In this document: piece after piece, positions 60,001-63,000 of the stretch
Position numbering within the stretch: the first letter of the stretch is position 1
Layout of the letters: each line of letters starts with the position of its first letter
Origin: a virus
Virus record (IMG/VR): IMGVR_UViG_3300030012_004221
Coordinates: 32,001-96,000 of that record
Direction: 5' to 3' (one strand)
Length of the DNA stretch: 64,000 nt
Position numbers: made by a program

Positions 60001-63000
60001 TTTAATTGCATCAATATTCATTCTTTTTGAATTATGCTTTTTAATCATCCTTTCATCTGTCACAGTACCCTGAGGTGTTTTAACACCAAGTACGGGGATG
60101 CTATTACTAAACTTGGGACTAATAGAAAGCAAGTTAATAGGGTAATCAGTAGGAAGAAAATGGCTACCTTCAGTTTCAATAGTAATAAAAATATCTCTTT
60201 CATGAGCAAAGTGGGTTAATTCATTTACTAATTTAGGATGCATCGTAGGAGATCCTCCTGTTAACATCATTTCCTTGATATGAGGATGCTGATCATATGC
60301 ATCTATAATATCTTGAAAACAATACATTCCTTTTTCAGGATGAATACTTGTATACCAAGAATCACACCATCCTCCTTCTCCAAAATAACATCTATGAGTA
60401 CACCCAGTAGTTCTAATTACTATGGTAGGGTAACCTTGACGACTACCCTCACTTTGTACTGCCGTGTATACTTCTACTACAGGCAGATTTTTACTATAAT
60501 CTTCGATTCTTTTTAACATATGCAAATTTTTTAAAGTGGTTTTACAGTCACTATATACAACCTATTCTCCAATATAACATGCAGCATTTTTACCATGCTC
60601 CATAAATTTAACTTTGGTAACTTTTACTCTACCTTCAGTTTCAGTATCTACAAATTTTTGTAGCTTATTATAAATATATTCAGCAAATTTTTCTGCACCA
60701 GTTGCTTCAACTTTTCTTAACTGAATTACTCCTAATTTATCCATTGTTTCAAAACCTTTAAGACCTGGATCATCTTCTGCTACTACTACGGTGTGATCAA
60801 ACATATAATCCATCCATTCTTTAGGTGACTTACCATCAATTTGAGTTTTAGCTCTTTTCATACCACCAAAATCCCAAACCCAATTTCTATGATCTAATTC
60901 ACCTTCAAAATATACTTTAAATGAAATACCATAACCATGCAAAAATCTACAATGTGTTGTTTCTGCTTTCCATTGACGAAATACAGTACTAAATCCGTCA
61001 AATACTTTACTTGATTGAAACTTACCCATTATACCAATTTTTTATAGCTGTTATCCCATCAAAAGCACCTACATGTCTTTTAATTTCGTTTCCATTCATA
61101 TCTGTTACAATACTAGTAGGAATGTTTTTTACGTTATATTTCTGTGGAAGATCTGCATCATAATCAATGTTTATCTTTCTAACAGGGATACCTGATTTGG
61201 CTATTTCTTCCATTTGTGGTGATAGTGCTTTACAAGGTCCACACCAAGGAGCACTAAAATATAAAATACCTTTATCCATTTTTATTTAATTTTTAATTAT
61301 ACTAATTCTTCTATTATACCAATTGCTTCACTCAATATAAGTAAAACAGTTGCAGTTACCAAACTAAAAGGAATAAAAACATAACCTACAATCCTTACAC
61401 CAGATTTAATAAAACTAATTATTTGGTGTAATTTAGGATCAGGATGATCTATTGTACCATTTTTTTTGGCTAAGCGGTTTACTAATTTATCTACCTCTTT
61501 ATCTAAATGTTTGTCTTGAATATCATTCATAATTTAATTTTTAATTTGTTCTAATTCATATTCAGCAAGAACTTGCTCTACATAAATCCTAGCTGTTTCA
61601 TAATCAACTGCACCTGTTTCATCCGCATATTGTACTGGATCAGGTCTTCCTAGTTTAATAAACGCTTCAATACGTTCTACAGACGATGCTGATTTATAAT
61701 CAGACCATCCTTCTGGGGTTGGTTTATATGAAGTATTTGTTCTAGCATAAACTTCATCAAAATCAATCTTTAATTTTTTACATAAAACTTCTCCATCTTT
61801 TAAAATATCAAATTTATCACCATTTAAATAAGGTGTATAATATGATACTCTTGATGCTTCCCAATTACCTTCAGCAAACGCTTTATAATCAGCATCTCTA
61901 AATTCTTGTCTACAATCAGGATAAATTGCATGATCACCAGCGTGAATACCCATTGCTATTCTAACAGGTGATTCTGTTTTATTTGCTATTGATAATGCTA
62001 CAGCTTGTACTAGTGAAGAAAATATTTTATTTCTATTAGGTACTACTGTAGCTTTCATATTATCTTCAGCATAATGTCCTTCTGGTACTTCATCTCCACC
62101 TTCTACTAAAGCTGAGTCTAATAATTCTACTAAACCATCTAATTTAATAACTTGATAATTAACATTATGACCATTTCTTTTTAAATAATCTACTAATGCT
62201 CTTGCTCTTTTAAGTTCAACTTTATGTTTTTGACCATAGTCAAATGACATAGCTGTTACTGTTTCAAATTCATCAAGACATCTAAGCAATAATGTACTTG
62301 AATCCATACCACCTGAAAGTGATACTACTGCATGTTTTGGACGTGCTGCGTCTTTAAAATTAATTTCTAATTGTGTCATTTTTATTATATTAAAATTTGC
62401 CAGGTATTATAAAGCGTATAGGCAAACGCTACATTTCATTTAATTTAAGCATTTTTTCTCTAATAACCACCCTAAAGTGATTATTTTGTATTTTAGCACT
62501 ACCTCCTTGTTTAAGAAGCTTTCTAAATAAAAATTCTTCATTTTCATTCCAAAATTCACTTAAAGCTATAATTTCATCTTTATTAGCTACTTCTTTACTT
62601 TTATTTAAGTAAACTTTATGAGTTGATCTTATTGATTGTTTTTTTAACATATTTTATACTTTAGATGCAACAAAAAATACAAATAATACAATAACAGCAA
62701 TTAAGGAAGTAACAGCCAAGCTAATTCCAAATGCTAGTTTTATACCAGTCATTACATAATTATGGAATTTTTTTCTTTTCATTACATATATTTAGGAACC
62801 CTAAATTTTAATATTGGATTACCATTAACAGTAGGTTGACCCATCTCATCAATTCCAATTTCTTTGACTTTAACTGGTTTATTCCTAAATCTACCAGTTA
62901 GTATTGTATCTCCTTTTTTAATAGGAATTATAAAATAATCTTCTATATATGTTGCTTTCATATATTATTAATTTTTCTAAATTTGTTAACATTAAATTCT

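Follow-up and report, generated by a model that had tools for sequence, protein, structure and literature searches.

A pseudoknot precedes queC

We analysed a 64,000-nucleotide (nt) stretch of viral DNA (positions 32,001 to 96,000 of the IMG/VR record IMGVR_UViG_3300030012_004221), hereafter the window, and within it the short gap that precedes queC, a gene of 7-deazaguanine biosynthesis. The record, 158 kb long and 97% complete, belongs to a marine flavobacterial-type phage whose closest cultured relative is Flavobacterium phage immuto. All genes in the queC part of the window lie on the minus strand, where 49 nt separate the UAG of an upstream open reading frame (ORF; stop codon at 62431-62429) from the AUG of queC (62379-62377). 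Read as RNA, this gap is AGCGU-UU-GCC-UAU-ACGCU-UUAUAAUACCU-GGC, with 19 A/U-rich bases between it and the AUG. Comparison with homologous leaders indicates that it encodes an H-type RNA pseudoknot of 34-36 nt. In this predicted fold, P1 is a hairpin of 4-5 base pairs (bp) with an 8-nt loop, and P2 forms between the GCC of this loop and a GGC situated 8-12 nt downstream (Table 1). In the window the element spans 34 nt, starting inside the UAG, as an initial annotation of this sequence had it, and ending 17 nt before the queC AUG instead of the 16 nt given there. We regard it as very probable that this is a real structured cis-regulatory RNA.

Table 1. Features of the queC leader and its surroundings, with positions counted from the first letter of the window
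Feature	Position	Strand	Remarks
queC	61534-62379	minus	281 amino acids (aa), PF06508; gene downstream of the element
Upstream ORF, 73 aa, function unassigned	62429-62650	minus	UAG overlaps first P1 base; not a conserved neighbour of the motif
P1 5' strand, AGCGU	62426-62430	minus	first A inside upstream UAG; pairs with ACGCU
L1 (UU here), 2 nt	62424-62425	minus	fixed length; UU, UA, UC, UG, CC, AA, CA, CU, GU in homologues
P2 5' strand, GCC	62421-62423	minus	within P1 loop; unvarying in IMG/VR, ACC variants in metagenomes
L2, UAU	62418-62420	minus	invariant; middle A without variant in metagenome contigs
P1 3' strand, ACGCU	62413-62417	minus	pairs with AGCGU
L3	62402-62412	minus	5' part variable in length and sequence; 3' AAUACCU invariant except first A
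P2 3' strand, GGC	62399-62401	minus	pairs with GCC
A/U-rich unstructured spacer to start codon	62380-62398	minus	no Shine-Dalgarno sequence
queE-leader pseudoknot, AGUGACUGUAAAACCACUUUAAAAAAUUUGCA-UAUG	60526-60561	minus	conserved in relatives; no Rfam match
Gene for 268-aa protein	62958-63764	minus	no Pfam match; first gene of this gene run
Promoter-like box 5' of the 268-aa gene	63767-63800	minus
Promoter-like box 5' of folE	57030-57055	minus
8-bp hairpin	57060-57079	minus	between 356-aa ORF and folE box
356-aa ORF	57083-58153

From this sequence alone, the element hardly exceeds chance, and it is the comparative evidence that decides. The minimum free energy fold of the sequence is unremarkable (z = -0.09), and interleaved pairs of perfect 5-bp stems of any composition turn up in 9% of shuffles, with some 245 sites on each strand of the window. 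When at least three G-C pairs are required in each stem, the element becomes the sole site in 64 kb and is matched in none of 20,000 shuffles, this criterion having been set post hoc.

Homologous leaders conserve both stems

Base pairs were counted in 77 distinct homologous leaders, and the 5-bp P2 of the initial annotation was scored on 74. Our results show that the four inner P1 pairs are formed in every leader, and that 99.5% of P1 cells and 99.6% of cells of the P2 core are paired. Pair 4-19 is G-C in 62 leaders, A-U in 11 and G·U in 4; pair 5-18 is C-G in 65 and G-C in 12; pair 6-17 is G-C in 67 and A-U in 10; and the P1 pair U7-A16 is invariant. As for P2, pair 10-35 is G-C in 73 leaders, A-U in two, G·U in one and of another kind in one, and pairs 11-34 and 12-33 do not vary. 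Changes on both sides of a pair are thus seen in three P1 pairs and one P2 pair, G·U wobbles occur, and the P1 type underwent at least 16 changes on the QueC tree. The two perfect interleaved 5-bp stems described initially are present in the window on the minus strand, and P1 is maintained in homologues with compensatory changes, but P2 shrinks to GCC/GGC: in the longer version (UUGCC at 62425-62421 with GGCAA at 62401-62397) one of the two additional U-A pairs cannot form in 24, and the other in 46, of the leaders scored.

Variation in the P2 core was also sought by pattern. Scans of IMG/VR for GCC variants at G10, C11 and C12 gave chance matches only; one P2-variant look-alike, L381, proved to lie antisense inside a replication gene and was discarded. 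A metagenome scan for ACC recovered four contigs, three of which (L479, L480 and L481, with QueC N-termini that differ from one another) carry GGU opposite and so replace G-C by A-U, the fourth (L482) having an A·C mismatch in P2. The occurrence of U opposite A10, compared with a single U in 74 G10 sequences, yields a Fisher p of 2e-4. This replacement of the outer core pair G10-C35 by A-U gives the knot covariation support as well, although this support consists of one covarying and two invariant pairs.

Conservation extends to the loops, which have kept their sequences where spacer and coding sequence diverged. Of about 36 positions, 15 do not change at all even though the encoded proteins are only about 70% identical, and hardly any change is seen in the joining nucleotides, U..GCCUAUA and AAUACCUGG. 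L3 as a whole measures 8-12 nt across homologues. An extended P2, in which the UAU at 62420-62418 would pair with the AUA of L3 and leave CCU bulged, would explain this pattern of fixed and variable loop positions; we saw no covariation behind it, and the metagenome scan brought no A14 variants. A long-range pairing of ACCUGG with the Ser-Gly-Gly codons of queC was also considered, and rejected because the use of Ser and Gly codons is equal in genes with and without the motif.

The motif is tied to queC and found in phages

QueC is encoded at 68-90% identity in 80 IMG/VR loci, some 55 of which bear the motif just before the start codon. In these homologous loci it stands behind differing upstream genes or non-coding DNA, and spacer and flanks have diverged. 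The overlap with the upstream UAG is accordingly incidental, since in other phages a different gene or non-coding sequence precedes the motif. In most homologues 19-23 nt lie between CCUGG and the AUG; six have a shorter spacing of 8-10 nt. A pattern scan extended the collection to 125 instances with 75 distinct core sequences, and in 120 of the 120 that could be evaluated a QueC-like ORF lies downstream, at a nearly fixed distance. The 158-kb genome contains a single copy, and a covariance model scores 61 bits at the queC leader against 12 bits for the next match in the window. The initial annotation had proposed such a model of the queC leaders of related phages. In these leaders the structure is strongly conserved, strand-specific and tied to queC.

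Among cultured phages, immuto carries the motif 21 nt before its queC (gp028), and it was not found in cultured phages other than the immuto phages. Nor was it found in 401 Flavobacteriaceae genomes, and among the 120 pattern matches listed for species-representative genomes none was a true instance. A divergent QueC (L207) used as query led to no further leaders. Marine metatranscriptome contigs contain queC-like sequence together with the leader region; their source is relatives 85-95% alike, and DNA is a possible origin, so that as evidence of expression they are weak. Metatranscriptome cover is low over 62565-62746, which proves nothing.

About one quarter of closely related QueC genes, at up to 85% identity, abut their upstream gene and have no leader motif (for example L007, L008, L028 and L031), which points to a module of about 45 nt that is readily gained or lost. 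In one metagenome contig, L482 (positions 294-329 and 346-1157), a 174-aa ORF with a weak DUF6934 match is inserted directly after the motif and queC follows about 600 nt further on; this is the only instance in which motif and queC are separated. On the host side, the Arenibacter genome behind locus L159 (G001) gave only weak PF06508 matches, inside very long open frames, and nothing that is clearly queC. De novo preQ0 synthesis may be lacking in some potential host lineages.

A second leader in the same cluster

The initial annotation had also placed two pseudoknots in this gene cluster, and this is borne out: a different leader of the small pseudoknot type, unrelated in sequence to the queC motif, lies before queE and is conserved in relatives. 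It keeps the marks of preQ1-I riboswitches, namely AC before the P1 3' strand, an A-run L3 and a P2 that adjoins the AUG. Both leaders occur in 13 contigs, and the queC leader occurs alone in four, three of which have QueF. We found no QueF in the phage of the window; of the complete motif-bearing genomes, G404, G405 and G408 are likewise without QueF, and G406 and immuto have it. In immuto DNA, guanine is fully replaced by fdPreQ1 (PMC10516641). The presence of the motif thus depends neither on QueF nor on the queE leader. If all these phages share one ligand, it would be preQ0 or a compound made before it in the pathway, for example 7-carboxy-7-deazaguanine (CDG), and not preQ1 alone.

Surrounding genes and signals

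The gene run that includes queC begins with the gene for the 268-aa protein, and ORFs of 59, 42 and 73 aa lie between that gene and the queC leader. Some relatives do not have the three tiny ORFs, and there the motif stands directly 3' of the 268-aa gene. A promoter-like box, made up of TTGTATATTA, some 12 A/T-rich bases and then AAAAAGTTATAAA, is shared by two sites, directly 5' of folE and of the 268-aa gene. Several related contigs have boxes of the form TTCGTAT(A/G)TT, which resemble it, 5' of the queC motif. Between the 356-aa ORF and the folE box lies a perfect 8-bp hairpin, AAUUUGGA-AUUG-UCCAAAUU, which may be a terminator or a processing hairpin.

A candidate riboswitch controlling queC translation

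What the comparison shows is the structure, the way it is conserved and that queC alone is linked to it; the control of translation, the direction of this control, and the existence and identity of a ligand are what we infer. Our preferred reading is a phage-only cis-regulatory pseudoknot, most likely a 7-deazaguanine riboswitch that damps queC translation, and we give it roughly even confidence; whether the element senses a metabolite in the first place is just as evenly poised. The rationale is that a 7-deazaguanine intermediate would lock the knot. Here preQ0, the product of QueC, is the favoured candidate because it would be present in phages with and without QueF. Once locked, the compact fold, 17-21 nt 5' of the AUG of an mRNA without a Shine-Dalgarno sequence, would sterically hinder loading of the 30S subunit, and with initiation hindered less QueC would be made. 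The queC leaders indeed contain no Shine-Dalgarno sequence, as is expected for Bacteroidota hosts. A preQ1-I knot still represses translation after displacement from the ribosome-binding site by up to 10 nt (PMC10018353). In a more specific and more tentative form, the element would represent a phage-only riboswitch class that senses a 7-deazaguanine other than preQ1 (preQ0 or CDG) in a pocket built without the specificity cytosine, perhaps with the invariant CC of L3. It would control translation without a Shine-Dalgarno sequence and, together with a separate putative preQ1-I-like switch at queE, would provide metabolite control at two points of the pathway by which guanine in the phage DNA is replaced.

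Several observations weigh against a riboswitch. In preQ1-I riboswitches the specificity cytosine is found directly 5' of the P1 3' strand, as UC in type I and AC in types II and III (PMC11625349). The queC element has no such cytosine: its ACGCU is preceded by the invariant UAU, and none of the 77 distinct sequences has a C in L2. The knot stops 17-21 nt short of the AUG, where a ribosome footprint has its edge, so that simple occlusion is not obvious. P2 has only 3 bp, two of which never vary, and we found no conserved alternative pairing that would compete with the knot. The metatranscriptome contigs come from related phages only and are without RNA ends. Finally, the invariance of the loops is as compatible with a protein site as with a ligand pocket.

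This last point leads to a translational operator, in which a phage or host protein would bind the knot and its loops to repress or activate queC, in the manner of the operators of ribosomal protein S15, T4 gene 32, RegA or threonyl-tRNA synthetase. The invariant single-stranded nucleotides, their fixed position near the start codon and the absence of a cytosine at the preQ1-I position all fit such a site. We nevertheless think it unlikely. QueC is an enzyme without known RNA binding, and QueC proteins 85% identical are encoded without the motif (L007 and L008), which indicates that autoregulation is not built into the protein. Moreover, the upstream genes differ, leaving no candidate partner gene as a constant neighbour, and by precedent small pseudoknots before que genes are metabolite sensors.

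Less likely still is an element that acts through its structure independently of any ligand, by fixing a level of translation, protecting the 5' end, offering a processing site or insulating queC from the upstream ORFs. One version of this explanation, which shares its low probability, sees in the element the relic of a riboswitch become 'self-liganded', with U7-A16 filling the layer that the ligand occupies in preQ1-I. The constancy of U7-A16 while other P1 pairs vary, the position of the motif right after a stop codon or a non-coding stretch, and the existence of close relatives that manage without it are consistent with such a role. On the other hand, a purely structural element should tolerate changes in its loops, yet 15 of the roughly 36 positions are invariant and variants of A14 are absent from the metagenome collection.

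An operator or promoter acting at the DNA level, with the inverted repeat of P1 bound by a dimeric factor, is very improbable. P1 is an inverted repeat and a weak sigma-70-like match overlaps the gap, but G·U (G·T in DNA) wobbles replace Watson-Crick pairs in both P1 and P2. Such wobbles keep RNA pairing and break DNA symmetry, which argues for RNA and not for a DNA palindrome. Furthermore, the conserved blocks lack symmetry, the motif keeps one orientation and a fixed distance to the AUG, each genome has a single copy, and the -33/-7 pattern of Bacteroidota promoters is absent. The absence of a U tract after P1 in most homologues argues against a terminator as well; indeed, homologues have UAAAAU or AAAAU there, the only terminator-like call falls on the opposite strand, and the intrinsic terminator was rejected. 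Lastly, a readthrough or frameshift signal for the upstream ORF, suggested by the contact between knot and stop codon in the window, is refuted by the comparative contexts and can be given practically no weight, as many homologues have no ORF ending there or another gene upstream, a spacer between stop codon and knot is absent, and it is the downstream gene that is linked in 120/120 instances.

A riboswitch before queC would matter for several reasons. Phages that swap guanine for 7-deazaguanines must make very large amounts of precursor within one infection cycle; the literature on phage 7-deazaguanine pathways, as we searched it, does not mention RNA control. If the reading is right, a phage-only ligand-sensing knot of 35 nt would be among the smallest riboswitches, and it would show the preQ1-I-like scaffold rebuilt around a different pocket. 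It would also allow riboswitch action to be tested where no Shine-Dalgarno sequence is present, an open problem according to a review of the field (PMC11625349). Immuto and its Flavobacterium host make the element directly testable.

Comparison with known RNA families

The initial annotation had matched the sequence to no preQ1 class, and Rfam agrees: neither an 8.5-kb region nor the 81-nt queC leader gave a PreQ1 match at E-values up to 10, and the leader matched no other Rfam family at that cut-off either. The preQ1-I-like queE leader is missed by Rfam too, which suggests that the RF00522 model is insensitive to phage variants. Full-text literature searches returned no paper describing the queC motif. 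The preQ1-II and preQ1-III riboswitches (RF01054 and RF02680) are likewise pseudoknotted RNAs tied to preQ1 metabolism, but they are much larger and of another architecture, and show no Rfam match at the queC leader.

The T4 gene 32 pseudoknot, invoked initially as a model for autoregulation, resembles the queC element in being a pseudoknot in a phage leader, with an unstructured A/U-rich stretch between it and the start codon. The likeness does not reach the protein: gp32 binds single-stranded nucleic acids and coats the leader of its own mRNA, but QueC, an ATP-dependent enzyme, is no nucleic-acid-binding protein. We find no specific support for autoregulation of this kind.

The counterpart in layout is preQ1-I (RF00522; types I-III, for example B. 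subtilis queC, T. tengcongensis, C. antarcticum and E. coli), whose members are pseudoknots of the same size and arrangement placed before que genes (PMC11625349). Both are H-type pseudoknots of about 34 nt with a P1 of 4-5 bp, an L1 of 2 nt, a short P2 between loop and tail and an L3 that contains A, and the queC element too stands directly before a gene of 7-deazaguanine biosynthesis. If P1 is read as 4 bp, even the UU step after its 5' strand is shared. The differences lie in the pocket and in the way towards the ribosome. If U7-A16 is left open, UA precedes CGCU, again without the preQ1-I cytosine. L3 ends in the invariant ACCU and not in an A run; at the level of sequence it is U/A-rich and contains the invariant AAUACCU. 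P2 is off any Shine-Dalgarno sequence, the AUG is 17-21 nt away and no terminator follows downstream. Unlike preQ1-I, moreover, the queC element is found only in phage contigs. Judged by these sequence features, it has a layout of the preQ1-I type and stands outside the family.
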